From NCBI GenBank assembly GCA_964583685.1, contig CAZOVJ010000001.1:196033-260032 (forward strand): a DNA stretch of 64,000 nucleotides. Direction: 5' to 3'. The notes under the pieces were generated by a model that did no database searches, was not told the origin of the DNA, and saw only the letters and a program-made list of their open reading frames with translations. Shown here piece after piece: positions 11,428 through 33,342 of this stretch (within the stretch, counting starts at the first letter, position 1; every line of letters begins with the position of its first letter). Source of the stretch: an uncultured Gammaproteobacteria bacterium (lineage in GTDB: Bacteria; Patescibacteriota; Microgenomatia; UBA8517). The position numbers and the translations under genes are program-made.

Positions 11428-11431
11428 AATT

Positions 11432-12322: not shown

Positions 12323-12334
12323 AAATCCAATATT

Positions 12335-13018: not shown

Positions 13019-13030
13019 AAATCCAATATT

Positions 13031-13861: not shown

Positions 13862-13871
13862 ATCAATGTGA

Positions 13872-16554: not shown

Positions 16555-16556
16555 AG

Positions 16557-18305: not shown

Positions 18306-18447
18306 GATGGCTATTTTAGCTGAAAAAGAAACAAAAACGCAATTTTTTCCCGATGAGTTGTCACAATTGTTGTTAAAATTAACAATTTTTGATAAAATTG
18401 GTTTGAACTATTTTATGGATGGCCGATCAACCCAAGATTTGTTTTTA

Positions 18448-18627: not shown

Positions 18628-18631
18628 CACC

Positions 18632-18895
18632 ATGACCAGCGCCGACGACATTCAAAAACAACATGACGTTTTAATTCCGGAGAAAGATGAAAGAACTCAG
18701 GAAGAGATAGGTGAAGAATCAGCTCTTGGTTCATCACCGGTTCCAACCTCAGATGATGATACTGGAGAAGTACTTGAAGGTGTAATTGGCAATGAACCGG
18801 AACCTGGAAAGCCGTTTACTATTGCAAAGGAAGTTGAAAAGGACGAAAAGGCACGGAGAGATGTGCCGAAAGGCTTGGACGAAGAGGGCAAGTAG
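18632..18895 (+). CDS. hypothetical acidic protein
   Basis: 87 aa ORF rich in D/E; no domain recognised. Confidence 0.35.
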   Translation: MTSADDIQKQHDVLIPEKDERTQEEIGEESALGSSPVPTSDDDTGEVLEGVIGNEPEPGKPFTIAKEVEKDEKARRDVPKGLDEEGK

Positions 18896-18912
18896 GATAT
18901 AATTAGAGACTT

Positions 18913-18985
18913 GGTGGTTGTAGCTCAATGGCAGAGCGTCCCCCTGTGGAGGGGAAGGCTGCGGGTTCGAATCCCGTCAACCACC
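18913..18985 (+). tRNA. tRNA-His(GTG) with G(-1)
   Basis: Extra 5' G, acceptor GTGGTTG/CAACCAC, anticodon stem TCCCC/GGGGA loop CTGTGGA, T-arm GCGGGTTCGAATCCCGT, discriminator C. Confidence 0.8.
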
Positions 18986-19020
18986 CATCGTGTTATAATA
19001 TGAATAAATAACTTATTAAT

Positions 19021-19491
19021 ATGGAAGGTGAAAGATTAAGCGACACAGAAAGGAAAAGGAGAGATGGGATAAGACAAGTAACCGGGTTAATTAATGATGC
19101 TGAAGTTGTTTCAAGATTAGTGCGTAGTAGGTCTGATAAATTAGATTTTATTGGACGAACTGGTACAGGATCTGGTTCATACGCACGTCGAGGAATATTA
19201 CTTGCTAAAGTTCCTGAACGAAGCGGACGTAGAGATGGGATAAATTTGGTGGTCACAGAGAACGGTGTTAGGCAGATTATAATCGGTTCTGATTGGGCTA
19301 GCGGCTCTACTGTTGTACATTTCCCAGATGATATAGTTCCTGATAGACTATTCGAGCAAGGAGAGTGTCTCGGAGATGTTAGCGCTGAAGATTTTCGGAA
19401 TAATGTAGTAAATAAATTGAGTAAATTTTCTGAAGAGGGTGGGGATGAGTTACAAAATGTTATGGAACAATTAAGAGATTTGAAAATATAG
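19021..19491 (+). CDS. hypothetical protein
   Basis: 156 aa ORF, no recognisable motif. Confidence 0.4.
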   Translation: MEGERLSDTERKRRDGIRQVTGLINDAEVVSRLVRSRSDKLDFIGRTGTGSGSYARRGILLAKVPERSGRRDGINLVVTENGVRQIIIGSDWASGSTVVHFPDDIVPDRLFEQGECLGDVSAEDFRNNVVNKLSKFSEEGGDELQNVMEQLRDLKI

Positions 19492-19781
19492 GTGAACTTT
19501 GTAAATTTGATTTTCTGCGGGTAAGGAGGAATACGATAGGTTTAGGTGAATCGTTGGCAATACCAATTATATTAGTATTGATCGGAGGGGCAATTTACTT
19601 AACCATAAAGGCTGGGAGACCGAATAAAACAGGTTAAGTAGAAAAGAACATAACCCCTATTAGAAAACACGTCTTGACTGAGCAAGTAAAAATCATAATT
19701 CAAGCAAGCCAAGGCGCTTTTTTATTGGAGAAAATAATTAGCTAAAAACAATTTTTCCTTATCTCCAGAAGTTATGAAATA

Positions 19782-19810
19782 AGTTCTAACGTCGTTCGGT
19801 AAGTCACCCA
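19782..19810. repeat. S-type intergenic repeat copy 1 (AGTTCTAACGTCGTTCGGTAAGTCACCC)
   Basis: Near-identical copies at 20417-20445 and 22408-22436; degenerate variants at 21781-21809 and 2767-2785; inverted partial copy at 22861-22892. Confidence 0.7.
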
Positions 19811-19844
19811 CAGAATATCCGTATTATTGGGTTTTCTTAGATAT

Positions 19845-19882
19845 AGTTCCCGACAAAGTTTACTAATCCCTGCAATTCAGCC
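19845..19882. repeat. R-type intergenic repeat copy 1 (AGTTCC[TC]GACAAAGTTTACTA[GA]CCCCTGCAATT[TC]AGC)
   Basis: Further copies at 20302-20340, 23811-23856, 24894-24932, 26919-26978, 27643-27692, 28485-28518; each lies between convergent or tandem small genes. Confidence 0.75.
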
Positions 19883-20224
19883 AAATAACTTTCTTAATAT
19901 CTTTTTAGTCCTAGTTCCTGCTCTCCAACCACGTCCAATATCAGAACCCAAATTTCCCAATTGTTCATCATCCATACGACGAATATCTCCAATTGTCACC
20001 TCTTCATGACTGCCAGGTAGCCAGTTGCAACCTCCTAAAATTCTTATAATAGCTGCTCTTTGTCCCTTTGTTAAATTTGCTTTCTCGAGTGTATTTGTAA
20101 ACTCTTCGTTATTACTTACAGATATAAGTGAAGTTTCTTCAGGAAGATTAACTCGAGGAATTCTACTCACATAATCTCTTGTACCACCAAGTGTTTCTAT
20201 AAGTCTTTCCCTTATTGTTGGCAT
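19877..20224 (-). CDS. hypothetical protein
   Basis: 115 aa ORF; no motif. Confidence 0.35.
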   Translation of the reverse strand: MPTIRERLIETLGGTRDYVSRIPRVNLPEETSLISVSNNEEFTNTLEKANLTKGQRAAIIRILGGCNWLPGSHEEVTIGDIRRMDDEQLGNLGSDIGRGWRAGTRTKKILRKLFG

Positions 20225-20301
20225 TTAATCACCCCATAAGAGCAGGTATAATCAAGCACATTATAATTGAGCGTAAGTAAATTTACAAATTCCATGGCAA
20301 T

Positions 20302-20340
20302 AGTTTTTCTGACAAAGTTTACTAGACCTTGTTTGCAACA
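20302..20340. repeat. R-type intergenic repeat copy 2
   Basis: AGTTTTTCTGACAAAGTTTACTAGACCTTG... Confidence 0.65.
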
Positions 20341-20416
20341 CGCATTGAATTACTTCTGAAATTTTCAAGAAGGAGTAGTTTCTTTAATATCTCGTAGCCT
20401 CCAGACGCCTTGTAAT

Positions 20417-20445
20417 GAGTTCTAACGTCGTTCGGTAAGTCACCC
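20417..20445. repeat. S-type intergenic repeat copy 2
   Basis: GAGTTCTAACGTCGTTCGGTAAGTCACCCC, identical core to copy 1. Confidence 0.7.
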
Positions 20446-20514
20446 CAACCGGACATAATTGAAGATACTTCATTATGCCCCATATTGTTGCGGTGTTTTG
20501 GGTTCGAGCCGATA

Positions 20515-20931
20515 TTAATCCCAAAAATAAAACTTTCTAGTGAATATTATTCTGTCTACAAAAGCAGCAAGTAATACTCCCAGTCCATACATTACATAAT
20601 CTATAGGGTCAAACACTCTTGCTAATGCATAAATACCAAAGTATTGTAAGGTTTCAGAAGTAGCAGTTAGAGCAAATATTGCTGCGGATTTCTTCCACAA
20701 AGTATTCAAATATCTACTCTTATTGCCCTTAATTGATAGCAAGAAATAAAACCCAAAAGGGAGGAATATATCGGCAAAGTAACTATGGAAAAGGATGTAA
20801 ACAGAACGACTTGCCCACCCTGCTCCAATAATAAAAAATGAAGCGATAATTAATTCTAAAACCACAACAAGAACAACTCTTTTATTTTGCTTATTCACGA
20901 GATAATTATAGCAAGATGCTATTTTTGACAT
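20515..20931 (-). CDS. hypothetical integral membrane protein
   Basis: 138 aa with ~4 hydrophobic helices. Confidence 0.45.
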   Translation of the reverse strand: MSKIASCYNYLVNKQNKRVVLVVVLELIIASFFIIGAGWASRSVYILFHSYFADIFLPFGFYFLLSIKGNKSRYLNTLWKKSAAIFALTATSETLQYFGIYALARVFDPIDYVMYGLGVLLAAFVDRIIFTRKFYFWD

Positions 20932-20955
20932 GTGATATGCGTAGATAATACGAAG

Positions 20956-21720
20956 CTACTCCTCAATCAATCCAGTACATCGCCAGTTGATTTCTGCGCT
21001 TTCATCTTCAGAAACTACACACGCTGGATTACATCCCGGTTTATCAATATCAAGATCTATCCACCAAGTTTTTGTGCTTTCGTTATAGATAGCAATATCT
21101 TTCAAGATGCCATTGCTGACACATTCGCTCGTTTCTGCGATTGACCTCGCTTTCTTTTCAGACATTGGGGTAGACTCAGAAACAACTAGTTCTTCAGATA
21201 ATGTGGAACAAATAAATCCAAGATCTCTACTTTCTTTTCTTGAATCATCACGAAGATATAATTCACACCCAATGTTGCCGAGCCTTAAAATACTTCTTTG
21301 TGTCCCCACCGGCCCACTTCCGACATTATACATATCATGCTCAAAACCTAACTCTCTTAAATAGATTTGGATTTCGCCGTGTTTATTTTTGAGTTCCATT
21401 TCATTGGTACCCAATCTTTCACCTATTATGTAGCCTTTAGCATCTAGTTTCAGCGTATCATTTTCTGTATTCCAAAGAATTGTGGCTCTAGAGTATTGAC
21501 TTCCCTGCCAATCAACAATTTTGTCTACACCATATAAAACAGTATCAATAGTGATTTCACCCTTATTTACTGGGGTTTCAGCATCTTTTTCCAAGCCCAC
21601 TTCCTGAGGAGTAGGAGTAGGTAAAGCTGTTTTATTCTCTTCAGAAGAACTTCTAATTGCTAGAAATGCTCCTCCTGCAATGATAACCAAGGCTATTCCT
21701 ATCAGCAAAGGCTTTTTCAT
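20956..21720 (-). CDS. hypothetical secreted protein (signal peptide)
   Basis: 254 aa; 'MKKPLLIGIALVIIAGGAFLAI' signal/anchor, Cys-containing C-terminal region. Confidence 0.5.
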   Translation of the reverse strand: MKKPLLIGIALVIIAGGAFLAIRSSSEENKTALPTPTPQEVGLEKDAETPVNKGEITIDTVLYGVDKIVDWQGSQYSRATILWNTENDTLKLDAKGYIIGERLGTNEMELKNKHGEIQIYLRELGFEHDMYNVGSGPVGTQRSILRLGNIGCELYLRDDSRKESRDLGFICSTLSEELVVSESTPMSEKKARSIAETSECVSNGILKDIAIYNESTKTWWIDLDIDKPGCNPACVVSEDESAEINWRCTGLIEE

Positions 21721-21824
21721 AATTGTCCAGATGCATTATAACACTTAAAAATTCTTTTTCTTTACTTTCTTGAAGGTAATAGGTTCGAACATCGTCTACT
21801 AGTCCACCCTCAAGCGTACATAAA

Positions 21825-21920
21825 CTGTTCTTTATACCCCGGATAAGCTTCTTGAAGTTTTATGAACAAGGCTAAATGTGGTTCAAAAGAAAAGTCGTTA
21901 TCCACCTATGGTATTTGATA
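21825..21920. repeat. ~95-bp direct repeat, copy 1 (second copy 22990-23085)
   Basis: '...TTATGAACAAGGCTAAATGTGGTTCAAAAGAAAAGT[CT]GTTATCCACC[TC]AT...' ~85% identical between copies. Confidence 0.7.
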
Positions 21921-21996
21921 GGCTTAATTATGTTCACCAAAGCTGTTTATGCAGGTTTATAATTATCTGCATTTATTCTGATATAATATTTTCACA

Positions 21997-22320
21997 ATGT
22001 CGCCAGAGAACGATGAAATTGAAGGAATAATTCCAGAAGCAGAAGAGTTTGTTAATGAGGTAAATCAAAGAAAAGATTTAGAAAATGATCCTATTTTTTC
22101 AGAACAGGAAGGTGGGGAGTATGGTCATGCTGTTCGTGGTCTTGCCCATTCAGCCATGCTATGTGCACTTAACCGGCATTCACCAGAATATCAGAGAAAT
22201 ATGTTAAAACAAAGAGTACAGGAAATTGTAACAAAGTTTGGCCCAAATATTATTCCCCTACTTCGTGATGAATTGAAGCTTGCACTATCTGAAGATGATC
22301 TGACACCAAAGGATACCTAG
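21997..22320 (+). CDS. hypothetical protein
   Basis: 107 aa ORF. Confidence 0.4.
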   Translation: MSPENDEIEGIIPEAEEFVNEVNQRKDLENDPIFSEQEGGEYGHAVRGLAHSAMLCALNRHSPEYQRNMLKQRVQEIVTKFGPNIIPLLRDELKLALSEDDLTPKDT

Positions 22321-22407
22321 ATCATTACATCACAAAGTTTAGTAGTTAATAATTGAAAAGATATTTTGATAACAAGATATGTTCCTTCTCCCCTGAAGTA
22401 ATGTAAT

Positions 22408-22436
22408 GAGTTCTAACGTCGTTCGGTAGACCACCC
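22408..22436. repeat. S-type intergenic repeat copy 3
   Basis: GAGTTCTAACGTCGTTCGGTAGACCACCCC. Confidence 0.65.
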
Positions 22437-22603
22437 CAGATTTTTAGCCTCGGAAATTATATAAAAGTATAGCAACCCTCTACCGGATTATAAACTTGTG
22501 TCGCCTGTTTGGTAAATGCTCTGTTACACTACTCACCTGAAAGGGTATAATACTAAGACGGAAAGGAGGTGCATACAGATTTAAGCTATAAATCTATAAT
22601 AAT

Positions 22604-22804
22604 ATGAACGGAAAAGTAAAAACAAAAACAGACAAAGGATTTGGATTCATTTCTCGAGAAGGAGAAGAAAAGGATCTTTTTTTCCACTCTAATGATTTGG
22701 AGGGTGTTTCTTTTGATGAACTTCAAGAAGGAGCAGAAGTTACGTTTGATGTAGAACAGGGCGAAAAAGGCCCAAGTGCAAAAAAGGTAAAACTTGCGAA
22801 ATAA
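22604..22804 (+). CDS. cold-shock protein (CspA family, OB-fold)
   Basis: 66 aa; 'MNGKVKTKTDKGFGFISREGEEKDLFFH' RNP1/RNP2 cold-shock motifs. Confidence 0.85.
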   Translation: MNGKVKTKTDKGFGFISREGEEKDLFFHSNDLEGVSFDELQEGAEVTFDVEQGEKGPSAKKVKLAK

Positions 22805-22989
22805 CATTCTTACAAAATAAAGGGTTCCAACAAGGTACAAATAAATTCACGCTGGAGAGAGGTGGGTTATTGTTTTAGTTAGAACGATCCCAAAACATAC
22901 GCTCTCCTTCAGGAATATTGTAAATACTGAATGAAATCGAAGAACTCAGAATTTACAATTAACTAGCCCTTACTCAAACACAAGCAAAC

Positions 22990-23085
22990 TGCTCTTTATA
23001 CTCAGGATATGCCTCTTGGAGTTTCATGAACAAGGCTAAATGTGGTTCAAAAGAAAAGTTGTTATCCACCCATAGTATTTTGATG
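22990..23085. repeat. ~95-bp direct repeat, copy 2
   Basis: see copy 1 at 21825-21920. Confidence 0.7.
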
Positions 23086-23113
23086 TTAAAGAAACAATTA
23101 ACCTCGTTTCTTT

Positions 23114-23155
23114 AGAGGTTCGATTCCCTCCGCCCCTGCAATTTAGCCTCAAGAA
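23114..23155 (+). other. tRNA 3'-end-like remnant (T-arm GAGGTTCGATTCCCTCC + acceptor-like GCCCCTGCA) fused to the 3' half of an R repeat
   Basis: Canonical GGTTCGATTCC T-loop with no matching 5' tRNA half upstream; continues into '...CCCCTGCAATTTAGCCTCAAGAAG' shared with R repeats. Confidence 0.5.
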
Positions 23156-23775
23156 GCCCCAAGAGTATATTCTTTATATGGTTTATGGTTTTTCCACAAC
23201 CATATTGAAGCGACTGGTAATTTTTTGTTAGTCAATTTATCTTTTTCTATCACCTTCCAGGCTTTTTCAATATTTGCTGGACTAACATCATTATAAACAA
23301 GAGTGAAGTGTAATACATCCCTTTTTTCTTTATGTATTGGCGAAAACTCCCCCAGCCTCTCTTTAATTCTCAAAACAAGATTGTCGGCTTCATTGTTTTG
23401 GGCAAATGCAACAAAAATAGTAAAATCCTCTCCATAATCCCCCAACCTGGTTGAATTTAACACAAACGGCTTTGTAGCAGATGCAATTTCTTCCATTCGC
23501 TGTAGCACTTTCATTTCATCTCTCTCTTCTATCATTATTTTTTGTCCAAGTGCTATGTGTGGAAAGATCTCTGTTTCAACAGTCTCTCCGTCTCCTGGTA
23601 TAAAAAGTTTTCGTGGGTTCATTTGCTCTCTCACTCTCAAAACACGGTACACCACTTTATCTGTTTCTTTTCCATAAACCTCCTTAGCAAGCAGAGAGAG
23701 TTGCTCTTTTAGAGAATCTTCCATTTCACCAGAAAGGTGAATCTCTACACGATATTCAATTTCTTTTCCAGACAT
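23149..23775 (-). CDS. 2H phosphoesterase superfamily protein (LigT/2'-5' RNA ligase-like)
   Basis: 208 aa; two H-x-[TS]-x motifs ('HIAL', 'HFTL') spaced as in LigT. Confidence 0.55.
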   Translation of the reverse strand: MSGKEIEYRVEIHLSGEMEDSLKEQLSLLAKEVYGKETDKVVYRVLRVREQMNPRKLFIPGDGETVETEIFPHIALGQKIMIEERDEMKVLQRMEEIASATKPFVLNSTRLGDYGEDFTIFVAFAQNNEADNLVLRIKERLGEFSPIHKEKRDVLHFTLVYNDVSPANIEKAWKVIEKDKLTNKKLPVASIWLWKNHKPYKEYTLGAS

Positions 23776-23810
23776 AGTTATATTTTACATTAACCTGTGG
23801 ATATTCGTAT

Positions 23811-23856
23811 CTGAAGTAGTTCCTGACAAAGTTCACCAGCCCTTACTACACAGCTT
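23811..23856. repeat. R-type intergenic repeat copy 3
   Basis: CTGAAGTAGTTCCTGACAAAGTTCACCAGCCCTTACTAC... Confidence 0.65.
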
Positions 23857-23863
23857 TGAAGTG

Positions 23864-24226
23864 TTAATTTTTTATCTGAATCGTTTTTAATTTTTCAGTC
23901 TTCTCATTCTTTCTTTTAAATATCAAAAAATCTGGCTTGACTACTAAATTGGGTTTTTCAAAGGGTTTTCCGCTAATAGTTTTTACTTTCCCTTGTATCT
24001 GTAATGTTCCCTCTTTTGTTTGGCTATCAATAACTAAGCAAACGATTGAATTTTTCAACACATTTTTATACTTAAGCGACATTGGGTGCGTAGAAATGTA
24101 GATGTTCATTTCATCATCTGATGTATAGTTAACAGTAGCAGCCCAAGGTTTTTCGTCCTTACAAGTAGCAATTACACAATATTTATGAGTTTTTATCCAA
24201 TCTTTAATAAACGCTCTATCTTGCAT
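23864..24226 (-). CDS. pyridoxamine 5'-phosphate oxidase-like FMN-binding split-barrel protein
   Basis: 120 aa; 'HKYCVIATCKDEKPWAATVNY' PNPOx-like signature. Confidence 0.55.
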   Translation of the reverse strand: MQDRAFIKDWIKTHKYCVIATCKDEKPWAATVNYTSDDEMNIYISTHPMSLKYKNVLKNSIVCLVIDSQTKEGTLQIQGKVKTISGKPFEKPNLVVKPDFLIFKRKNEKTEKLKTIQIKN

Positions 24227-24379
24227 ATCTAAATTCTACATCAGAAGTACAATTGTAGTAAAAGAAGTTTCATAAAGCCCACTTAGCCCTTGGTTAAAAC
24301 ATAGGCCAGTTGAGGATTTAGGAATTCTTGGATTCTAATAACCTCCGAAGAGCCTATTTCGTGCCAGAAAGTTCGTAGT

Positions 24380-24892
24380 GTGACCACTAAGGCCTGCAAA
24401 TCAGCTTCAGATGATATAATTGACACTATGTACTCTGTTGGAGTTTTTGCGATTATTCTGAACGAGAAACAACAAATCCTGCTCTCTCACAGAAAAGATA
24501 TGGATGTTTGGAATCTGCCTGGAGGAGGAATGGAACCTGGCGAAGCACCACAAGGTGCACTAAAAAGAGAAATAAAAGAAGAAACAGGATTGGAGGTTAT
24601 TATTAAACATCTAGTAGCCTTAAACCCAAAACCACAAAAAAGTGAGTTAGTTTTAACGTTCGAATGTAAAGTTACACGAGGAAAAATCAAAGAAACAGAC
24701 GAGGCTGATAAACACGAATGGTTCAATTTAGACAACTTGCCACTAAATACCGTCCCCAAACAGGTGGAGAGAATATATCACTTTTTCAAAATGCCCGGAG
24801 AAGTATTTCTAGATGTTCAAAATCAGCCGAGCACTAAGGTGTTACTAGCAGAAGGGAAATTAGAAAAATTTAATAAGAAATTACTTAAATAA
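24380..24892 (+). CDS. NUDIX hydrolase
   Basis: 170 aa; Nudix box 'GGGMEPGEAPQGALKREIKEETGL'. Confidence 0.8.
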   Translation: MTTKACKSASDDIIDTMYSVGVFAIILNEKQQILLSHRKDMDVWNLPGGGMEPGEAPQGALKREIKEETGLEVIIKHLVALNPKPQKSELVLTFECKVTRGKIKETDEADKHEWFNLDNLPLNTVPKQVERIYHFFKMPGEVFLDVQNQPSTKVLLAEGKLEKFNKKLLK

Positions 24893-24893
24893 A

Positions 24894-24932
24894 AGTTCCT
24901 GACAAAGTTTACTAGCCCCTGCTTACAACATC
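24894..24932. repeat. R-type intergenic repeat copy 4
   Basis: AGTTCCTGACAAAGTTTACTAGCCCCTGCTTACAAC. Confidence 0.7.
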
Positions 24933-25571
24933 TACCCCGTAAATTCCACTTAATACTCCAAGAAACTCTTGAAGCAACTCATCTTCTGAGTTTATGGTTA
25001 CAAAAGAACTGTGACCTTCGTATATTTCGATTAACATTCCCTCTACATCATTTTCTATCCGTACTGATTCAAAATGTTTATAAGAAGGCCTTGGTCTCCT
25101 TTTGTCTACTTCCAACCACCATTTCTCTTCTCTGTCTTTCTCTGCTCCAGAATTGAGAAGTGGAACATTAGCTATACTCACAAAATGCAGGAGTATATCG
25201 GCATCGTAAGGATGAGAAGAGCCTAGATTTTGCCTACCCAAAGTGAGAATATAGGCTCTGTTTTCACTTTGCAGTAAAAACTCACCCCCATATTCTCTCC
25301 ACTTTACTGGAATCTTGGGGAATTCGTCATATTCCTCAAGGTATGATGGTCCAATCGTTGTGCGAGTAGTGATATGAATTGTACCGTTTTCGTCCTGAGT
25401 TCTTTCCTCTAAAGACTCCCTATCTCTTTGCAATCCTGGCTTGTATATCGAATATCCTTTTTCCCTAGCAAATGCCATAAGCTCCATTGGGATTCTTACT
25501 GATTCAGAGACAGGGTTAAGTTTGAATTCTCTGCTCTTTAAAGACGGTGTAGTCTTGCGTTCCTTAGACAT
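24912..25571 (-). CDS. hypothetical protein
   Basis: 219 aa ORF. Confidence 0.4.
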   Translation of the reverse strand: MSKERKTTPSLKSREFKLNPVSESVRIPMELMAFAREKGYSIYKPGLQRDRESLEERTQDENGTIHITTRTTIGPSYLEEYDEFPKIPVKWREYGGEFLLQSENRAYILTLGRQNLGSSHPYDADILLHFVSIANVPLLNSGAEKDREEKWWLEVDKRRPRPSYKHFESVRIENDVEGMLIEIYEGHSSFVTINSEDELLQEFLGVLSGIYGVDVVSRG

Positions 25572-25684
25572 TGTTTCCTCTTTAAGTTACGCTGTGAAAA
25601 TTATCGTTAACAAAAACATTTTATACGTTTCAAAACACAGTGCTTGATAAAAAAATGATATAATAATGACAAGATCAAACAGAA

Positions 25685-26818
25685 ATGAACTACCAATTTC
25701 AAGAATCTAGGCTTTCCACCATATTTCGCCAAGAGGATACACTGGCAACAAGAAAGTTAATTAATGAGTCTGTGTCGTTCACAGTTATTGGAATGCCTGG
25801 AATGGGAATCTCCTCTTTTCTTAAATTTCTGGTAACGCAAAATTTCGCTTATTTTATCCATATCGATTTATACGAACTCCCAGAAATGAATCGTCTAAAC
25901 CTTTACAGGCTTATAGCAAACAATCTGGGAGTGGAAGCGTTAGGTAATTTGTATAAACTTCAACAAAATATAAAAGCAAAACTAAGAATCCTTACTCAAA
26001 AACACAAAAGGGTTGTCTTAGTGTTCAACAGATTTGACCAAATTAAGGATGAGTTTAGCACCAGTTTTTTTTCTAATTTGAGAGGTTTGAATGAAGTGGA
26101 TAAAGAAAAGATAGTACTGATTTTTTCAAGCAATAAGCCTTTGTACCAATGGAGTTCTGAGGCCTTCGAAAGATCCAATCTTGACACTTTTGCAAAAGAA
26201 TATTACTTGAAGCCATACTCAAACAAAGAAATGATTCAATTGTTAAAACTGTACATGCCCAACTTGGCTCTCAACAAGAAGGCTGTTAACAAGTGTTTAG
26301 GGTTGTCTGGTGGCCACTTCCAGCTATTTCAGCTTCTCATCAAATCTCAACGCTCAAATCTCTTTCTTTCTGATAAATACATTTTATTGCAAATAAGACG
26401 TATCTACGAAGAATGCTTAACTTTTAGACAAAAACAACAACTTCAAAAAATCGCTCACCATAAAAAAGTTAATGACATAGATCCTTATCTTTTGAAGTTA
26501 GGAATTATCACAGAAATGCCTGACAGATATACCCTATTTTCCCCACTACTTAAAGAATATATCAGAAATTTATGTGTCGTGAACTTGTCTCCCTTGGAAA
26601 TAAAATTACTAAGATTGCTTAAGAAAAATATCGGAAAAATAACAAGTAAAGATGATATTTTCAACGCACTTTGGCCAGATGATCTTGAGAAACAAAGTGA
26701 TTGGGCCCTTAATGCTTTAATCTATAGAATTAGAAAAAACCCTGCATTTTTAGAAGAAGGTTATTCATTAAAGAATCATAAAAAGCTCGGTTATGCTTTA
26801 TCAAATAGGTTTGATTGA
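25685..26818 (+). CDS. putative ATPase fused to C-terminal OmpR/PhoB-type winged-helix DNA-binding domain
   Basis: 377 aa; degenerate P-loop 'VIGMPGMGISSFL'; C-terminal 'LSPLEIKLLRLLKKNIGKITSKDDIFNALW...SDWALNALIYRIRKN' matches trans_reg_C wHTH pattern. Confidence 0.5.
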   Translation: MNYQFQESRLSTIFRQEDTLATRKLINESVSFTVIGMPGMGISSFLKFLVTQNFAYFIHIDLYELPEMNRLNLYRLIANNLGVEALGNLYKLQQNIKAKLRILTQKHKRVVLVFNRFDQIKDEFSTSFFSNLRGLNEVDKEKIVLIFSSNKPLYQWSSEAFERSNLDTFAKEYYLKPYSNKEMIQLLKLYMPNLALNKKAVNKCLGLSGGHFQLFQLLIKSQRSNLFLSDKYILLQIRRIYEECLTFRQKQQLQKIAHHKKVNDIDPYLLKLGIITEMPDRYTLFSPLLKEYIRNLCVVNLSPLEIKLLRLLKKNIGKITSKDDIFNALWPDDLEKQSDWALNALIYRIRKNPAFLEEGYSLKNHKKLGYALSNRFD

Positions 26819-26918
26819 AAAATCAATCATTGTCTGCTTCACAAATACCCCAAACTTTCCTAAGACATCTTTCATTATCAAAAGGCATAACTATGTCCCG
26901 AGAATTCTGTCGGCAATA

Positions 26919-26978
26919 GGTTCCAACAAAGTTTACCAGCCCCTGCAATTTAGCTTCAAGAAGTCTCTGTCAGGAATC
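26919..26978. repeat. R-type intergenic repeat copy 5 (extended, with inverted terminal half CTGTCAGGAATC)
   Basis: GGTTCCAACAAAGTTTACCAGCCCCTGCAATTTAGCTTCAAGAAGTCTCTGTCAGGAATC; ends are imperfect inverted repeats. Confidence 0.7.
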
Positions 26979-27660
26979 TTTCAATATGCTTTATAACTAT
27001 ATTGCATTCTTTTTGAGAGTGTCTAAAGTCATGTCCCATATTGGGCTGCCTGATAACATATGGATTATTTGCATTGGTAACTATTTTTTCAGTTTCTTTG
27101 GGCGGAACACTTTTGTCTTCAAGCGCAATAAATATCATAATTGATTTGTGAATTTTTTTAACTTCTTCCATTGCTGAAAATTGCATTCCATCTTCCGCAA
27201 AGGTATAAGGTATATCAAATACTCTAAACTTTTTTGGATTATTAGGTAAATCTCTTTCTGAATGCCGAAATTCCTTTCCTTCCCAATTTAAAGATGAGCC
27301 AATTCTGTCTGCCACCGAACAAAGCGAAACAATTTTTGTAACTCCCTTAATTCTATTACCAGCGATAATTGCTACAAAAGCACCTAAACTATGCCCAATT
27401 AAAACTACTTCTTCTAAATCCTTATTTTTGTAAACATTAACTCTATCTGCAATTTGATGAATATAATTTGTGATTGTGTAGTTCTTCACATTACCTGTTT
27501 TCCATAAATTACAGGGGTCAAGTCTTTCAACCGTATACCCTAATTCTTTAAGTCTTTTCTCAAAAGTCCTTATATGAAGATAGTCGGGTGAATCCAAATA
27601 TCCTGGGAGTAATATCGCCAATTTCATAATAAGAATTATAACAGAAGTAGTTCCTAACAA
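26956..27660 (-). CDS. alpha/beta-fold hydrolase
   Basis: 234 aa; nucleophile elbow 'GHSLGA'. Confidence 0.6.
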   Translation of the reverse strand: MLGTTSVIILIMKLAILLPGYLDSPDYLHIRTFEKRLKELGYTVERLDPCNLWKTGNVKNYTITNYIHQIADRVNVYKNKDLEEVVLIGHSLGAFVAIIAGNRIKGVTKIVSLCSVADRIGSSLNWEGKEFRHSERDLPNNPKKFRVFDIPYTFAEDGMQFSAMEEVKKIHKSIMIFIALEDKSVPPKETEKIVTNANNPYVIRQPNMGHDFRHSQKECNIVIKHIERFLTETS

Positions 27661-27692
27661 AGTTTACCAGTCCCTGCAATTTAGCTTCAGAA
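27643..27692. repeat. R-type intergenic repeat copy 6
   Basis: CAGAAGTAGTTCCTAACAAAGTTTACCAGTCCCTGCAATTTAGCTTCAG. Confidence 0.7.
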
Positions 27693-27727
27693 TTGAAATA
27701 ATATTGCCTATTAACAATTAAAAGCAG

Positions 27728-28429
27728 TTATTCTTCTAACAATTTGAATTTATTATCCTGTGGTATATTCTCCTCTGTCTCCTTCCCGTCTATTAAGGAC
27801 AACTTAAAAGCCCTTGCATCTTTAGAAGAGATTAATATCCTGTATTTATTATCAATTATTACTATAGCAGAACAATCTTCAAGAGCAATCGTTGGAAGTT
27901 TCACTTTCCGTAAATTTCTCCAGATGAGTTTCTTCTTTTGATTTTCCTTTGGATAATGACAGACATTACTAAAATTGTTGACTAAACCTAGCCCCATATA
28001 AACTTTCTCTTTGCTTGAACTCAGACTTTTCCCAAACCAACAATAAGATCCTGAACTTATTCCCGAAAGAACAATGTTTCTTTTAGCGACGGTTTTCAAT
28101 AATTTATCTACACCAAACTTTTTCCAAATTTTCAACATTCTCTCTGTATCCCCACCGCCAACATAGATTAAATCAGATTTCAGGATTTTATTATTAATCT
28201 CTTGCCTTGTGGGAGTTTCTTTAACTAAGTAAAGGACATCCGTTCTGCATTTTAATTTTTCGCCATAAACTTTGCCAAAATTCTCAAAATAACTTTCTGA
28301 ATCATTACTTGCAGTTGGGATTAAAAGAGATTTCGGCCTTCTCTTACCAGTAAGTTTTACAATTTCCTTATCTATACTTAAGGTTTCAAAACTCTTTAAT
28401 TCTCCACCTCCAATAGCTACTATTCTCAT
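27728..28429 (-). CDS. peptidase E-like (S51 family) dipeptidase
   Basis: 233 aa; 'MRIVAIGGGE...LLIPTAS' N-terminus and 'GISSGSY' serine region. Confidence 0.55.
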   Translation of the reverse strand: MRIVAIGGGELKSFETLSIDKEIVKLTGKRRPKSLLIPTASNDSESYFENFGKVYGEKLKCRTDVLYLVKETPTRQEINNKILKSDLIYVGGGDTERMLKIWKKFGVDKLLKTVAKRNIVLSGISSGSYCWFGKSLSSSKEKVYMGLGLVNNFSNVCHYPKENQKKKLIWRNLRKVKLPTIALEDCSAIVIIDNKYRILISSKDARAFKLSLIDGKETEENIPQDNKFKLLEE

Positions 28430-28484
28430 ATACGCACATTATAGCAAGGGAATAAAGTTTTTGTGACTTCAAGCTCTTGAAACC

Positions 28485-28518
28485 AGTTCCTGACAAAGTT
28501 TACTAGCTACTGCAAATA
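28485..28518. repeat. R-type intergenic repeat copy 7
   Basis: AGTTCCTGACAAAGTTTACTAGCTACTGCAAATAC. Confidence 0.7.
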
Positions 28519-28522
28519 CAGA

Positions 28523-29470
28523 TCATATTATAGTACCCCTTGAGAAAACTGAAGAACGATTTGTAGGCTTTCCTTCTCCTGGCGTGTAGCTACAATAAGA
28601 TGCGACGGCCATAAATTGATGCATGAGATTTCTTCGCGCTTCTGGAAGTTCACCTATCATTTTTTTAAAACGATGTATGTACTCTGCAAGTGTTTCTGGA
28701 CTAAAGGAGTCAGCAATTTGATATGGTTTCATTGAATGAATAACATCGTTAGAAGATATGGCCCCTGAAAATTGTTGCATTTCATTAGGTTCTTCTATAA
28801 GAAGTGCATTGAAAAGGTTAGGTAATTGTCCAAAGTCGGAAACGCTATCAACCATATCATCAGCCATTTGCAGGCCAAGTATCTCATTCCTTGCCACCCC
28901 AATTATTTTTTCAATATCTTCATCCTTTGCGCCTGCAGATATTCCGATAACACGAATTATCATTTCTACCATGTCACCACTAGTTTGTTGCCTGTAGTTT
29001 AATACAGAATCATATGAGGTTTTAGAAGGCTTAAAATCATGAATAAAATTAGAGTGTGCATGAATTGCTTCTTTTTTATATCCAACAACTAATTTCCCCA
29101 GATCCTCTTTCGTCTCTTGAGAAAGGCCACTGCCATTAATTGTATTTTCAACCTTTTGAAAACGATGTTTGTCAGATACTCCTTTATGATGGATTTCCTC
29201 TAATTTAAAGCTGGATCCTGGCGGTTGAGAATCAAGATATGAATCAGCCCAAAACCAATAATCTATTACTTCTAAGACTATTCTGTTCACTCCGATTCTC
29301 TCACTTTCTTTTGGACCCAATTCTAAAAAACGAGAATAAGCTTTAATAAAAAATGTATTTGTTATGCTCGGTGGCTCTTTTCCTTCTAATCCAATTTTCC
29401 CCTTAATTGCCAGCGCCGCTAGTCTTAAAAATGCGCGAGATGTGCCCAGTATTCTTTCATGCTTTAACAT
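28523..29470 (-). CDS. hypothetical protein (possible isoprenoid-synthase-like, single 'DDMVD' Asp-rich motif)
   Basis: 315 aa; 'LGLQMADDMVD' resembles second Asp-rich motif of trans-prenyltransferases but first motif not found. Confidence 0.3.
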   Translation of the reverse strand: MLKHERILGTSRAFLRLAALAIKGKIGLEGKEPPSITNTFFIKAYSRFLELGPKESERIGVNRIVLEVIDYWFWADSYLDSQPPGSSFKLEEIHHKGVSDKHRFQKVENTINGSGLSQETKEDLGKLVVGYKKEAIHAHSNFIHDFKPSKTSYDSVLNYRQQTSGDMVEMIIRVIGISAGAKDEDIEKIIGVARNEILGLQMADDMVDSVSDFGQLPNLFNALLIEEPNEMQQFSGAISSNDVIHSMKPYQIADSFSPETLAEYIHRFKKMIGELPEARRNLMHQFMAVASYCSYTPGEGKPTNRSSVFSRGTII

Positions 29471-29581
29471 TTGGGGAATTTTAACAGAGTATGCATTAAA
29501 AGTCCCGTCTATTAGGTATAGAGAAGTTCCTGGCTAAGTTAAATCCCTATTTAAGAAGATATTGAGAGAATATCACCTTTT

Positions 29582-30016
29582 CTATTCCGTAGCTTCTCTG
29601 AACATCTTTGATCCTATTTGGATATTTTGAGCAGTAACGCTTCCGTCCGAATTTGTTTGCCCGATTACCATTATTTCTATCCCTTCACTTAAGTCTTCAG
29701 TCGAACCTTCTTCGGATTTATTTATTCCGGTAGAATTTGTGAGGATAACAATTTTGCTACTATCATCAGCTAGCCTTACCGTTACACTCGAATCATCCAT
29801 ACTTACAATTTCACCCCTTACGGTATTTGTTCCGCCGGAAACATTAGCTCTTTGGCCGAATTGACCCATTCTTTCTTGAAAATCCGATGGTAAATTCCTT
29901 ATAAATTCGGGGGTTTTGCTTTCTTGGTGTTTCATTCCCCCAAAGAAACCTGCTCCACCTGCAACTATGGCTACCACTAATGCAACTGCTATAACGTTAT
30001 TTTTCATATAAATCAC
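29582..30016 (-). CDS. hypothetical membrane-anchored/secreted protein
   Basis: 144 aa; N-terminal TM 'VIAVALVVAIVAGGAGFF'; first gene upstream of the ABC efflux genes. Confidence 0.4.
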   Translation of the reverse strand: MIYMKNNVIAVALVVAIVAGGAGFFGGMKHQESKTPEFIRNLPSDFQERMGQFGQRANVSGGTNTVRGEIVSMDDSSVTVRLADDSSKIVILTNSTGINKSEEGSTEDLSEGIEIMVIGQTNSDGSVTAQNIQIGSKMFREATE

Positions 30017-30025
30017 CCCCCTTTT

Positions 30026-31261
30026 TTACTCATACCTAAGTGCATCAATAGGTTCTAACTTCGCAGCTTTGCTTGCTGGGTACCAGCCAAATAGAATTCC
30101 GACTCCTGCTGATACTGCGAAAGCAAGTAAGACAGAACTAAACGACAAAACAAAAGGTAAGTTCATTGAGTTTGATATTATTGCCGAAATTGCAATTCCA
30201 ACCAAAGTTCCTATTGCCCCACCAATAAATGTGATCATTATGGCTTCTACTAAAAATTGGGTAGTTATTGTGTTTCTTTTTGCACCCAAAGCTTTGCGTA
30301 GTCCAATTTCGCGTGTTCTCTCAGTGACTGTCACAAGCATGATGTTCATTATTCCAATTCCTCCAACTAGCAAAGAAATTGCGGCAATACCAGAAAGAAG
30401 AGTTGTAAAGGTGCCAGTTATTTGGGTCATGGTACTCAAAATATCTTCTTGAGACATTATTCTAAAATCAGCTTGTTCCGGATTTTTTATTTTGTGTCTA
30501 GATAAAAGCAGGTTGCCTATTTCCTCTTGAGCTCGTACCATAACATCCTCGCTTATTGCGGAAACTGAAATAGAGCTGACATAATCAACACCAAAGAGCA
30601 GTTTTTGGGCTGTTGTTAGAGGAATATAAATAATATCATCCTGGTTCATAAAGCCACTTCCACCCTTTTCTTCAGTCACACCTATTACATTAAAAACTTG
30701 ACCGTTGATTCGGATAGTTTGGCCAACCGGATTTTGTCCTGAACCTGTCGAAGGATCTCCAAATAAATCTGCAGCTGTAACGGGTCCCAGAATGGCTACC
30801 TTGCTCATACTATCCACATTTCTCTGAGTGACAAAAGTACCAAGAGAAATGATGGTGTTTCGAATTCCTGCATACTCGGGAAGAACACCGGTAACGCTTG
30901 TATTGGTATTGTTTTTCCCGGCTACAACTTGAGTTCTTGAGGAATATTCTGCAGAAACTTTATCTACAGTTGTTATTCCAGGTGATGTCATTATTGCTTT
31001 TGCATCATTATAGGTTAACGTTGTTACATTTCCACCACCCCTAATACCACCTGATATTTGGGATCCCGGTGTTATCGTAAGAAGATTTGATCCGAGAGAT
31101 TGAATTTGACTGGTAATAAAAAGCTGGCTTGCTTGCCCCAAAGATACAAGTGCTATAACGCTCCCAATGCCAATTATTACTCCTAGCATAGCAAGTCCGG
31201 TTCTCACCTTGTTAAGGGTCAGAGTTGACAAGCTTTCGGTAACTAATTCAGATAATTCCAT
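30026..31261 (-). CDS. ABC transporter permease, MacB/FtsX-like
   Basis: 411 aa; N-terminal TM, large periplasmic domain, C-terminal FtsX-type 3-TM bundle. Confidence 0.7.
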   Translation of the reverse strand: MELSELVTESLSTLTLNKVRTGLAMLGVIIGIGSVIALVSLGQASQLFITSQIQSLGSNLLTITPGSQISGGIRGGGNVTTLTYNDAKAIMTSPGITTVDKVSAEYSSRTQVVAGKNNTNTSVTGVLPEYAGIRNTIISLGTFVTQRNVDSMSKVAILGPVTAADLFGDPSTGSGQNPVGQTIRINGQVFNVIGVTEEKGGSGFMNQDDIIYIPLTTAQKLLFGVDYVSSISVSAISEDVMVRAQEEIGNLLLSRHKIKNPEQADFRIMSQEDILSTMTQITGTFTTLLSGIAAISLLVGGIGIMNIMLVTVTERTREIGLRKALGAKRNTITTQFLVEAIMITFIGGAIGTLVGIAISAIISNSMNLPFVLSFSSVLLAFAVSAGVGILFGWYPASKAAKLEPIDALRYE

Positions 31262-31263
31262 TT

Positions 31264-31968
31264 TTACTTTCTCTTTCTAATTATTTTTTGTTTTCCGTTA
31301 TGATTATCGTTTGCGATTTTTCCATCACGAATTTTTATTATTCTTTTTGCAAACTGGGCAATTTCTTTTTCGTGAGTAATTATTAGAAATGTATGTCCTT
31401 GTTCGTTTAAATCTTGAAATATTTCCATAATTTCTATAGCTTGTTTTGTGGTAATGTTTCCAGTGGGCTCATCGGCTAATATAATACTTGGATTCATGCT
31501 CAATGCTCTTGCGATTGCTACACGCTGCTGTTGACCTCCAGAAAGTTGATTTGGGGTGTGTTCAATTCTGTCCTCTAAACCTACCATTTCTAGGTAATTT
31601 TTGGCCTTTTTCTCGCGCTTTTCTTTTTGGATGCCGCCATACATCATAGGAATCATCACGTTCTTTAAGGCAGTTACCCTTGGAAGTAGGTTATAAAACT
31701 GAAAAACAAAGCCAATTTTTTTATTTCTAATCTCAGCAAGTTCGTCTTCATCCAGATTCACAACGTCATGTCCGTCCAGTAGATACTTGCCAGTTGTAGG
31801 TTTATCAAGCGCACCAATTATATGCATCAACGTAGATTTACCACTTCCTGATGGACCCATGATTGCAACAAATTCACCCCTTTTTACCTCAAGAGAAACT
31901 CCATTCAATGCTTTTACCGTTACTTCACCGGTTTTGTAGACTTTGGAGACATTTTTTACCTGTATCAT
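31264..31968 (-). CDS. ABC transporter ATP-binding protein (MacB/LolD-type)
   Basis: 234 aa; Walker A 'GPSGSGKST', signature 'LSGGQQQRVAIARAL', Walker B 'ILADEPTG'. Confidence 0.9.
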   Translation of the reverse strand: MIQVKNVSKVYKTGEVTVKALNGVSLEVKRGEFVAIMGPSGSGKSTLMHIIGALDKPTTGKYLLDGHDVVNLDEDELAEIRNKKIGFVFQFYNLLPRVTALKNVMIPMMYGGIQKEKREKKAKNYLEMVGLEDRIEHTPNQLSGGQQQRVAIARALSMNPSIILADEPTGNITTKQAIEIMEIFQDLNEQGHTFLIITHEKEIAQFAKRIIKIRDGKIANDNHNGKQKIIRKRK

Positions 31969-31983
31969 ATTTCATGATAATTA

Positions 31984-33222: not shown

Positions 33223-33342
33223 TTTTAGGCACTTGAGAGCAAGTTTAGATATTATACTGAAAAGACATCCTTAAAGCCAAAGAAGTAGTTTATTTAATAA
33301 GATTTTTCCCTACCCCACCCAATATATTTTTTGAGTGCTGGA

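Follow-up and report, generated by a model that had tools for sequence, protein, structure and literature searches.

In integrons, the IntI gene lies beside the attI site, and the cassettes are mostly promoterless, co-oriented and expressed from Pc. Their attC sites are imperfect palindromes of 57–141 nt, which are recognised as folded single strands and conserved by structure. The dif and pdif sites consist of two 11-bp arms with palindromic inner halves and a 6-bp centre, and cis-mobilisable elements (CIMEs) are att-flanked cargo that lacks an integrase and is mobilised in trans by a related integrative and conjugative element (ICE). The genomes of Patescibacteria, or the candidate phyla radiation (CPR), measure about 1 Mb and contain few recognised mobile elements, and the acquisition and exchange of accessory genes in these bacteria are poorly understood. 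The tycheposons of Prochlorococcus are tRNA-targeting elements with tandem accretion (bioRxiv 10.1101/2020.12.28.424599). The DNA analysed here, a stretch of 64 kb designated below as the window (contig CAZOVJ010000001.1 of assembly GCA_964583685.1, positions 196,033 to 260,032; coordinates below count from its first base), carries a series of small genes separated by short, directly repeated sites downstream of a tRNA-His gene. This region is probably a tRNA-anchored array of small mobile cassettes moved by site-specific recombination, of a type widespread in Patescibacteria (Microgenomates/Woesebacteria-like).

Repeated sites in the window and in other genomes

Four profile hidden Markov models (HMMs), designated R, R2, S and S2, were built solely from copies in other genomes and applied to the window with all filters off. 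Fourteen sites were found (seven R, one R2, three S, two S2 and one S/R hybrid; E-values from 7e-14 to 8.5e-4), all of them on the + strand and within 19776–28517, and the next best match in the 64 kb had an E-value of about 0.5. The 18-mer core of R with at most three mismatches occurred 6 times in the window versus 0.15 by chance, and the S pattern 3 times versus 0. Suspected copies at about 22825, 22940 and 24255 and at 29520–29550 were below significance in the HMM search. The window is AT-rich (39% G+C) and contains many tRNA genes. An earlier note on this DNA had described two repeat families, R and S, in the intergenic gaps, and their presence at these positions is confirmed far above chance; the two-family picture holds only in part, as at least four families with a common architecture are present, together with adapter mini-cassettes and a partial tRNA-Trp at 23115–23141. 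The same note had allowed that the repeats might be genome-wide repetitive extragenic palindromic (REP) or terminator elements, which their confinement to one 9-kb stretch of the window speaks against.

All four families follow the plan RGTTC-N16-core, the tRNA itself having GTTC-N10-core. The cores of R and R2 copy the last bases of tRNA-Trp (..CCTGCA) and those of S and S2 the last bases of tRNA-His (..CACCC); the tRNA-His of the window, whose 3' end reads ...CAACCACCC, supplies the CACCC core common to S and S2. The R2 core is a variant, GGCCTGCA, which matches tRNA-Trp genes with the end ..GGGCCTGC. The stretch common to site and tRNA is merely 5–9 nt long, the T-arm region being replaced by a conserved non-tRNA arm. 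In 252 unique R copies the conserved block, AAAG[A/T]AGTTCCTGACAAAGTTTACTAGCCCCTGCA, was 35 nt long with up to 1.9 bits per position and a sharp left edge at AAAG[A/T]A, so that the shared 5' context reported previously is real; the right flank was weakly conserved (AAWWTAGCCTCA). The tRNA-Trp fragment of the window was recognised as T arm and 3' acceptor strand because intact tRNA-Trp genes in related loci match it. It is followed by ATTTAGCCTCAAGAAG, and R was found to terminate in the last bases of tRNA-Trp because its tail and trailer equal those of this fragment. The trailer after the 3' end of tRNA-Trp (..CCCCTGC followed by AAAATAGCCTCA.. or by AAAATGCCGAAGAATTGGGA) equals the trailer after R cores, AAAATGCCGAAGAATTGGGA following tRNA-Trp in locus L004 and an R copy in L009; the junctions between tRNA and cassette and between cassette and cassette would therefore lie in the shared core. 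Across hosts R (median pairwise identity 0.77) is about as conserved as the anchoring tRNA-Trp genes (0.71), and its conservation despite a likeness of only ~71% between those genes speaks for sequence-specific recognition.

The R and S consensus sequences and the window copies, folded as single-stranded DNA on both strands, gave minimum free energies of -0.5 to -4.5 kcal/mol (z = +0.4 to +1.4 versus shuffles). The likeness to attC or foldback sites that had been proposed for them was not upheld: R and S have less structure than their shuffled counterparts, are about 35 nt long and are conserved by sequence rather than by structure. The inverted halves noted at 26919–26978 do exist in that copy, but they are not a feature of the family and fold no better than shuffles (z = +1.35). 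The Rfam scan of 18000–30500 revealed two tRNAs and nothing else. R was also considered as a minus-strand promoter, and this was rejected, as TTGTCA of the reverse complement lies ~14 nt from a weak -10 box and the distance to the start codon is variable.

Species-representative genomes were searched with an exact 21-nt degenerate R pattern and a metagenome collection with a related pattern. The former yielded 9 loci (Microgenomates, Woesebacteria and 'Patescibacteria group' metagenome-assembled genomes, MAGs) and the latter at least 120; individual loci are denoted below by L and a number. In L009, for example, seven near-perfect R copies occur in 4 kb, with one small gene between neighbours. 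Over 133 listed loci, 282 R sites were counted with a median spacing of 614 nt, no locus having sites on both strands, and all 369 sites of the four families in 120 listed loci were co-oriented. The 249 inter-site units of the listed loci had a median length of 567 nt; 68% of them contained exactly one open reading frame (ORF) of at least 80 aa, and 34 were gene-less and shorter than 150 nt. Scans of IMG/VR for R and S gave one chance match in a coding region and nothing more, and a phage origin of the sites was rejected, since the viral contigs of that database lack them.

The following counts refer to the 34 of the 120 listed loci in which a tRNA can be seen upstream of the first site. The tRNA was on the same strand as the sites in all 34, at a median of 625 nt (about one cassette) before the first site, and the anchoring tRNA genes were intact. 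The anchors were Trp(cca) in 26 loci, His(gtg) in five, Leu(tag) in two and Arg in one; both Leu(tag) anchors had a tRNA-Trp 3' fragment within ~30 nt downstream. At the position equivalent to that in the window, tRNA-His heads the arrays of L029, L035, L086 and L097. The earlier suggestion of a cassette array built at a tRNA is thus supported by the co-orientation of the window sites with tRNA-His, by site 3' ends that copy tRNA 3' ends and by equivalent arrays at tRNA-Trp, tRNA-His and tRNA-Leu elsewhere. The proximal part of the window array is dominated by S-type sites. Two gene-less composites recur in other arrays: the S–spacer (35 nt)–R tandem at 19776–19879 is also present in L021, L029, L086, L093, L102, L104 and L114, and the composite at 22970–23141, comprising a module designated D4, ~60 nt and the partial tRNA-Trp, is also present in L086 and L074.

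R sites with 2–6 mismatches to the 29-nt R core were also detected in L006, L008 and L012, on GTDB contigs labelled Bathyarchaeia or Gammaproteobacteria, with tRNA-Trp upstream on the same strand in L006 and L008. These contigs are probably mis-binned Patescibacteria DNA, or their R sites may stem from cross-lineage transfer. In L007 (4054–4848), a LAGLIDADG homing-endonuclease-like ORF adjoins tRNA-Tyr in a tRNA-Thr/Tyr/Thr/Trp cluster.

Cassette exchange, cargo and units of the array

All-versus-all comparison of 171 R-bounded units revealed cassettes 70–95% identical in different arrays. In whole-locus alignments the homology spanned one unit exactly and halted at the flanking sites, the neighbouring units being unrelated; identity fell exactly at the sites from about 0.9 to about 0.3 (0.8–1.0 within the shared cassette versus 0.2–0.4 in the 40 nt outside it). 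Locus L090 contains three cassettes (1.64 kb, with R at both edges) in addition to those of L094, which has a single R at this place, and the flanks of the two loci are 96–100% identical. A cassette common to the window and L009 was suspected for the NUDIX gene and rejected, because the two aligned only at the R2 and R sites and not in the genes; a near-identical R2 of L009 precedes an unrelated NUDIX gene.

The MacB protein encoded beside the window array has homologues at 82–91% identity, including those of L136 (85%) and L139 (82%), two loci whose 13 tRNA genes are arranged in the order seen in the window. The distance from tRNA-His to the DUF5666/MacB operon is ~0.87 kb in both of these loci, with one 185-aa ORF and one S-like site, versus 10.6 kb in the window. 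The region is not a fully conserved core, a possibility raised in the earlier note, given that these syntenic relatives hold one cassette versus ~14 genes; comparisons between arrays showed cassettes gained, lost and exchanged exactly at the sites. The 300-kb contig of L139 also includes L065, a locus with a seven-site R array at tRNA-Trp, and array size therefore varies by genome and by tRNA. In L139 (7786–7821, 11784–11815) and L140 (7787–7817, 11784–11819), S sites bracket the efflux operon (E = 1e-7 to 2e-3), and a unit with an S site and a cold-shock (CSD) gene follows it, the cold-shock protein unit of the window lying on the other side of the operon. The 4-kb operon encoding a membrane fusion protein (MFP), an ABC ATPase, MacB and DUF5666 may itself be a cassette, and beyond it, at about 33283–33322, there is a degenerate S-like remnant (...CCCCACCCA); tentatively, the window array may extend past the coordinates first given for it.

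The 866 ORFs of the listed loci formed 630 clusters, of which 510 were singletons. The most common cargo was NUDIX (25 ORFs in 24 listed loci), and the recurrent Pfam families also included HD, dCMP deaminase, MazG, GNAT, methyltransferases, alpha/beta hydrolases, glyoxalase, 2H phosphoesterase and YfbR-like nucleotidase. Among in-array ORFs, 94 were on the strand of the sites and 101 on the opposite one. An extended -10 box (TGnTATAAT-like) was found 13–14 nt past the core in 16% of sites versus 1% of random windows, with ATG 6–8 nt beyond it. The TAGCCTCA-type left end of cassettes goes with + strand genes (45:19) and the CCGnAnnATTGGG type with - strand genes (10:0). In contrast to those of integrons, these cassettes thus appear to come with expression signals of their own. 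Many cassette genes (27628–27650 and 28429–28450 in the window, and those of many loci) have TATAAT or TGnTATAAT 6–8 nt before ATG and lack a Shine–Dalgarno sequence, which suggests that leaderless mRNAs may be common in the arrays. Outside the array, the methylpurine glycosylase, Ham1 ITPase, thymidylate kinase and CTP synthase genes located among tRNA genes at 7176–11219 encode enzymes that metabolise or sanitise nucleotides, a functional flavour like that of much of the cassette cargo.

The D4 module (~100 nt; 22 unique copies) occurs up to four times per locus, with 80–92% identity between genomes (L074, L093, L086 and L044 among the hosts). Its opposite strand contains a small ORF, ..WVDNDF[S/Y]FEPHLALFxKLQEAYPEYKxQFxYV and a stop (..WVDNDFSFEPHLALF.KLQEAYPEYK.QF.YV and a stop), in which the initial conserved codons overlap the S2 site and the variable positions are mainly third codon positions; the first window copy has a 31-codon ORF on the - strand (VDNDFSFEPHLALFIKLQEAYPGYKEQFMYA and a stop). 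The module also has an internal hairpin-like AGCCTCTTG..CAAGGCT. D4 was considered as the C-terminus of a longer protein, such as a partitioned integrase, and this was rejected, since every homologue of the ORF among 5.8 billion proteins searched had 33–79 aa. A third module family ends in GGTTC-N16-CAGCCCCGCA and encodes ..GADG[FT][YW][LI]EP.LL..L..AYPNYKEQF.Y.; it possibly implies another tRNA-type core, similar to that of tRNA-Met.

The units and sites are listed in Table 1. Between 19021 and 29470 there are 14 ORFs of at least 66 aa, five on the + and nine on the - strand, and the gene descriptions given previously (cold-shock protein Csp, 2H phosphoesterase, PNPOx-like protein, NUDIX, peptidase S51, alpha/beta hydrolase and AAA+/winged-helix protein) were borne out by Pfam. 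Several boundaries deserve comment. The left end of cassette 1 is TGTTATAAT, and a hybrid like that at 21776–21807 closes the sole cassette of L136. Homologues of the protein encoded by the 2H phosphoesterase cassette were found in five further arrays. The longest call for the NUDIX ORF, 24380–24892 (+), starts inside the preceding R2 site, and a promoter-like box, TGATATAAT, lies 3' of the R2 core in this cassette; the stop codon of ORF 24912–25571 (-) lies inside the preceding R site. The core of R at 28480–28517 has decayed to GCTACTGCA, and the decayed R-like remnant at 29520–29550, after the last unit, gave only a partial, non-significant match (R HMM, E = 1.1).

Table 1. Units of the array, sites and associated features (window coordinates unless a locus is named)
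Feature	Coordinates	Strand	Content and evidence
tRNA-His(gtg), array anchor (attB/attI-equivalent)	18914..18986	+	ARAGORN; Rfam tRNA 70.9 bits
Cassette 1	18987..19812	+	ORF 19021-19491 (+), 156 aa, no Pfam match; terminal S 19776-19812, E = 1.9e-12
Gene-less adapter mini-cassette	19813..19879	+	~35-nt spacer (..CCGTATTATTGGG..), then R 19840-19879, E = 5.9e-10
Cassette with ORF 19877-20224 (-), 115 aa	19874..20332	+	terminal degenerate R 20298-20332, E = 7.8e-6
S site closing ~115-nt gene-less segment	20412..20449	+	exact match to the consensus of the earlier note; E = 7.1e-14
Two-gene cassette	20450..21807	+	ORFs 20515-20931 (-) and 20956-21720 (-); terminal S/R hybrid 21776-21807 (AGGTTCGAACATCGTCTACTAGTCCACCC)
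D4 module, copy 1	21806..21910	+	~100 nt; terminal S2 21874-21910, S2 HMM E = 4.9e-13
Cassette with ORF 21997-22320 (+), 107 aa	21911..22440	+	terminal S 22403-22440, E = 1.1e-12
Cold-shock protein cassette	22441..22969	+	Csp ORF 22604-22804 (+), Pfam CSD 7e-21; right edge a weak R-like remnant near 22940
D4 module, copy 2	22970..23076	+	83% identical to copy 1; terminal S2 23038-23076, E = 7.8e-13
Partial tRNA-Trp, T arm and 3' acceptor strand (GAGGTTCGATTCCCTCCGCCCCTGCA)	23115..23141	+	repeat family D9; matches tRNA-Trp 3' ends of L004, L065, L084
2H phosphoesterase cassette	23142..23848	+	ORF 23149-23775 (-), Pfam 2_5_RNA_ligase2; terminal R 23813-23848, E = 8.8e-10
PNPOx-like cassette	23849..24403	+	ORF 23864-24226 (-), Pfam PNPOx_N; then R2 24366-24403 (AGTTCGTAGTGTGACCACTAAGGCCTGCA)
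NUDIX hydrolase cassette	24404..24924	+	Pfam NUDIX 3e-21; terminal R 24889-24924, E = 7.2e-13
Two-gene cassette	24925..26953	+	ORF 24912-25571 (-), 219 aa; AAA+/winged-helix 25685-26818 (+); terminal R 26913-26953, E = 3.5e-9
Alpha/beta hydrolase cassette	26954..27683	+	ORF 26956-27660 (-); terminal R 27644-27683, E = 7.8e-12
Peptidase S51 cassette	27684..28517	+	ORF 27728-28429 (-), Pfam Peptidase_S51 1e-35; terminal R 28480-28517, E = 1.6e-10
Last clear unit	28518..29555	+	ORF 28523-29470 (-), 315 aa, no Pfam match
DUF5666/MacB/ABC ATPase/MFP efflux operon	29582..33322	-	Pfam; possible large cassette (tentative)
R sites	19840-19879, 20298-20332 (degenerate), 23813-23848, 24889-24924, 26913-26953, 27644-27683, 28480-28517	+	R HMM
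S sites	19776-19812, 20412-20449, 22403-22440	+	S HMM
S/R hybrid site	21776-21807	+	S HMM E = 8.5e-4
R2 site	24366-24403	+	R2 HMM E = 1.2e-11
S2 sites	21874-21910, 23038-23076	+	each terminates a ~100-nt conserved module (119-nt repeat D4)
Third module family, GGTTC-N16-CAGCCCCGC(A)	L071 66-143, 1108-1179, 2069-2137; L132; L060; L086 ~10346-10405 (R-oriented coordinates)		

Two further tRNA-linked segments were observed upstream of the array. The tRNA-Gly(tcc) gene at 18500–18571 lies between inverted repeats (CCTTCCTTCCCCGCCTGCAAGTGCTA and TAGCATTGCGGGCAGGCAAGGAGG) and is followed by a partial tRNA-Gly-like 3' fragment (GGCAGTTCGATTCTGCTCACCCGCTCA) at ~18600–18626 and by an 87-aa ORF (18632–18895); in relatives the gap between tRNA-Gly and tRNA-His is 5–22 nt, and the segment 18460–18900 suggests that a third tRNA has received a small insertion. 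This fragment and that of tRNA-Trp are the only two true partial tRNAs in the window. Between tRNA-Pro and tRNA-Gly, ~7 kb (11428–18499) contain five ORFs of 235–600 aa without a Pfam family and a 582-aa AAA_5 (dynein/MoxR/McrB-type) ATPase, the same interval in L136 and L139 consisting of adenylosuccinate synthase and one small ORF; this is possibly a further tRNA-linked island, perhaps a defence system. At 17933–18131 the AAA_5 ATPase gene, which is on the opposite strand, contains an internal coding repeat: two direct copies of 88 nt, 83% identical and separated by 111 nt, that include a 22-nt sub-repeat.

Proposed mechanism and rival explanations

In the mechanism that we favour, a cassette would be a segment of about 0.4–1 kb with mostly one gene in either orientation, often under its own extended -10 promoter, and its right end would be the ~35-nt unstructured site AAAG[A/T]A-GTTC-N16-core, in which the core equals the last 5–9 bases of a tRNA gene. 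We infer that the cassette would pass through a circular form, which would recombine conservatively within the shared 5–9-nt core, either with the matching tRNA 3' end or with an existing array site. The tRNA would be left intact and the new cassette would come to lie directly after it, with its site at the distal side; repeated insertion would produce a co-oriented array, and site-by-site recombination would excise, delete and reshuffle its members. The adapter mini-cassettes (S–spacer–R, and D4 with the partial tRNA-Trp) would put Trp-type cores into the tRNA-His array, with the partial tRNA-Trp acting as an internal Trp-type anchor, and the window would mix site families because of them. 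The recombinase gene would lie at another place in the genome or be carried by a helper element, and the enzyme would most likely be of the tyrosine type, because the length of the shared core fits the typical overlap region of 6–8 bp. Conservative site-specific recombination would account for the intact head tRNA, the single site orientation and the clean indels and shuffling at the level of cassettes, as well as for the composite sites (right arm, core and next left end) and the two-core adapter units. The anatomy of the arrays, their tRNA anchoring, the modularity of cassettes, the variability among relatives, the lack of hairpins and the absence of a linked recombinase are observations, whereas the circular form, the crossover position and the enzyme class are deduced from them.

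A number of results weigh against this mechanism. No integrase, resolvase, transposase or other recombinase family was found by Pfam in any window ORF of at least 140 aa or in the largest in-array ORFs of other loci. Unfiltered phmmer searches with XerC, XerD, IntA (P4-type) and PinE of E. coli against 3045 six-frame segments (735 kb, ~126 arrays) gave a best E-value of 0.04, such single-sequence probes being weak for distant tyrosine recombinases (in the control, XerD matched IntA with E = 0.007). The absence of an integrase from the window, already stated in the earlier note, was therefore borne out by both approaches. Circular cassette contigs were looked for and none were found. Among diverged, unascertained R copies, conservation of the left arm exceeds that of the core, contrary to the prediction of a pure crossover-site model, and the sites are without the dyad symmetry that simple tyrosine-recombinase core sites typically have. 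Some of the conservation may be non-recombinational, given that the opposite strand of D4 and, weakly, that of R varies in a codon-like manner. Finally, the L090/L094 indel and the shuffling could also be explained by homologous recombination between 35-nt repeats. The genes beside tRNA-Trp in other loci (PGA_cap, QueA, a LAGLIDADG protein, an M50 peptidase and Fmt) included no recombinase, and no gene family recurred at the array borders of the listed loci. The recombinase, if there is one, is unlinked to the arrays.

The main rival is homologous recombination after DNA uptake, which we consider unlikely: there would be no dedicated recombinase, and the sites would serve as portable homology for RecA-type or slippage recombination between 35–45 bp repeats, by which DNA taken up by naturally competent, genome-reduced hosts would be swapped in and cassettes would be deleted. 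The lack of a recombinase beside any of the ~126 arrays agrees with it, as do the L090/L094 indel, which is what repeat-mediated deletion would give, the direct repeats, whose identity inside one locus is often 90% or more, and junctions that can be placed no more precisely than to the whole site. Such recombination leaves unaccounted for, however, the tRNA-end cores, the start of arrays at tRNA 3' ends and the RGTTC-N16-core plan of four families; it offers no account of how a new gene would acquire a site, and the cross-host conservation of the sites noted above points to sequence-specific recognition instead.

It is improbable that the region is the eroded residue of successive tRNA-targeting elements (islands, satellites or tycheposon-like elements), with R and S as decayed partial-tRNA repeats and the integrases lost. 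The true partial tRNAs at 23115–23141 (Trp) and ~18600–18626 (Gly) and the location of arrays at tRNA 3' ends would fit such a history, and tycheposons are a documented case of tandem accretion with partial tRNAs (bioRxiv 10.1101/2020.12.28.424599). However, R and S share only 5–9 nt with the local tRNA and have conserved non-tRNA arms, so they are not decayed tRNA copies; moreover, they are more alike among distant genomes than neutral decay permits, the units are single genes of ~0.5 kb, no integrase remnant was detected in the 735 kb, and identical cassettes travel as units among arrays.

Still less credible is the assumption that the sites are ordinary intergenic elements (REP-like elements, terminators, promoters or short peptide ORFs) and that the cassette appearance is incidental. 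The extended -10 box past the core in 16% of sites and the conserved ORF of 31–45 aa on the opposite strand of D4 could be read in this way, as could a faint 3-nt periodicity of R, whose translation is LQGLVNFVRN[FYW][FY]; the periodicity is small in unascertained copies (1.04, 1.14 and 1.22 bits by phase), and R is at most a candidate coding segment. Against these points stand the lack of a hairpin and of an Rfam match, the orientation of the sites, which is fixed relative to the tRNA and not to the genes, their restriction to one 9-kb stretch of the window and the breaks of inter-array homology exactly at the sites. Lastly, an integron fragment, that is, a cluster of attC sites lacking an integron integrase (CALIN) with IntI elsewhere, would match the co-oriented sites with single ORFs between them, the diverse integron-like cargo and the lack of a nearby integrase, but it can practically be dismissed, as the sites are ~35 nt long, conserved by sequence, without inverted core sites or a fold above shuffles on either strand (z = +0.4 to +1.4), gene orientation is random relative to them (94:101), many genes have their own promoters, no IntI is present, and a tRNA anchor takes the place of attI beside intI; the integron affinity proposed in the earlier note is not retained.

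Returning to site-specific recombination, the wider proposition is that Patescibacteria possess an independent, integron-like gene-capture platform with tRNA 3' ends as insertion sites, double-stranded DNA cassette sites that mimic tRNA ends, adapters, an unlinked and possibly novel recombinase, and hundreds of single-gene cassettes, largely for nucleotide-sanitising and small-molecule enzymes, moving across genera of these genome-reduced symbionts; we regard the chances of this as about even. The insertion tRNAs of such a platform would be those for Trp and His and perhaps also Met, Leu and Gly.

Comparison with described systems

A full-text literature search, in which not every journal was covered, revealed neither the site sequences nor a description of such arrays in Patescibacteria, and within that coverage this looks like a gene-capture system so far undescribed. 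If the proposed reading is true, a tRNA-anchored platform in more than 100 assemblies would be a main route of gene flux in this large section of the bacterial tree. The sites offer a marker ready for use in the mining of cassette metagenomes, and they flag a cause of assembly breaks and of possible mis-binning beside tRNA-Trp and tRNA-His in CPR MAGs; with the enzyme in hand, the combination of short sites and a tRNA target would be attractive for a recombination tool.

The REP elements and bacterial interspersed mosaic elements (BIMEs) are palindromic and occur in both orientations genome-wide, whereas the present sites have no palindrome and a single orientation and lie within 9 kb of the 64-kb window. 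CRISPR arrays have repeats of 28–37 nt, spacers of 30–40 nt and nearby cas genes, whereas here the spacing is 300–2000 nt with ORFs, and Pfam scans of the window ORFs of at least 140 aa revealed no cas families. The CIMEs are alike in being att-bounded DNA without a recombinase of their own that builds up in tandem at a tRNA-type site; they are, however, decayed large elements, few per site, whereas the arrays form a family of single-gene units, numbering in the hundreds and spread over many genera, whose dedicated sites are conserved. The pdif modules of Acinetobacter plasmids and the integrative mobile elements exploiting Xer (IMEX) also form small modules with short sites and a recombinase encoded elsewhere; the array differs from them in having direct rather than alternately inverted sites and a tRNA end instead of dif as the chromosomal partner. 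R resembles the outer parts of both dif arms of B. subtilis (AGTTCCT and AGTTTAC), its halves being direct and not inverted. It was nevertheless rejected as a Xer/dif site, since the 28-bp dif has palindromic inner arms, with ..ATAA-N6-TTAT.. as required by Kono et al. (PMC3025954), and this palindrome is absent on inspection of the R consensus.

The closest systems in function are integrons and tRNA-linked tandem islands such as tycheposons, although the array lacks the defining features of both. Tycheposons and other tRNA islands resemble it in their integration at the tRNA 3' end with the tRNA intact, in older arrivals being pushed outward, in tRNA-derived direct repeats between units and in forming flexible islands in streamlined genomes. 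They are, however, kilobases long, with their own integrase and replication genes and true partial tRNAs of ~40 nt, whereas the array has single-gene units, no integrase and a tRNA match of 5–9 nt joined to a conserved non-tRNA arm. Integrons (sedentary chromosomal integrons and CALINs) share with it co-oriented sites, mostly single-gene cassettes, shuffling, one fixed chromosomal insertion site and diverse accessory cargo (acetyltransferases, glyoxalases and NUDIX). The array differs from integrons in its ~35-nt unstructured, sequence-conserved sites, in a tRNA 3' end in place of attI without an adjacent IntI, and in genes of either orientation, many with their own promoter. If confirmed, it would represent a second, independent solution to the integron task of stockpiling and shuffling single genes, one with a simpler 35-bp site and no folding.

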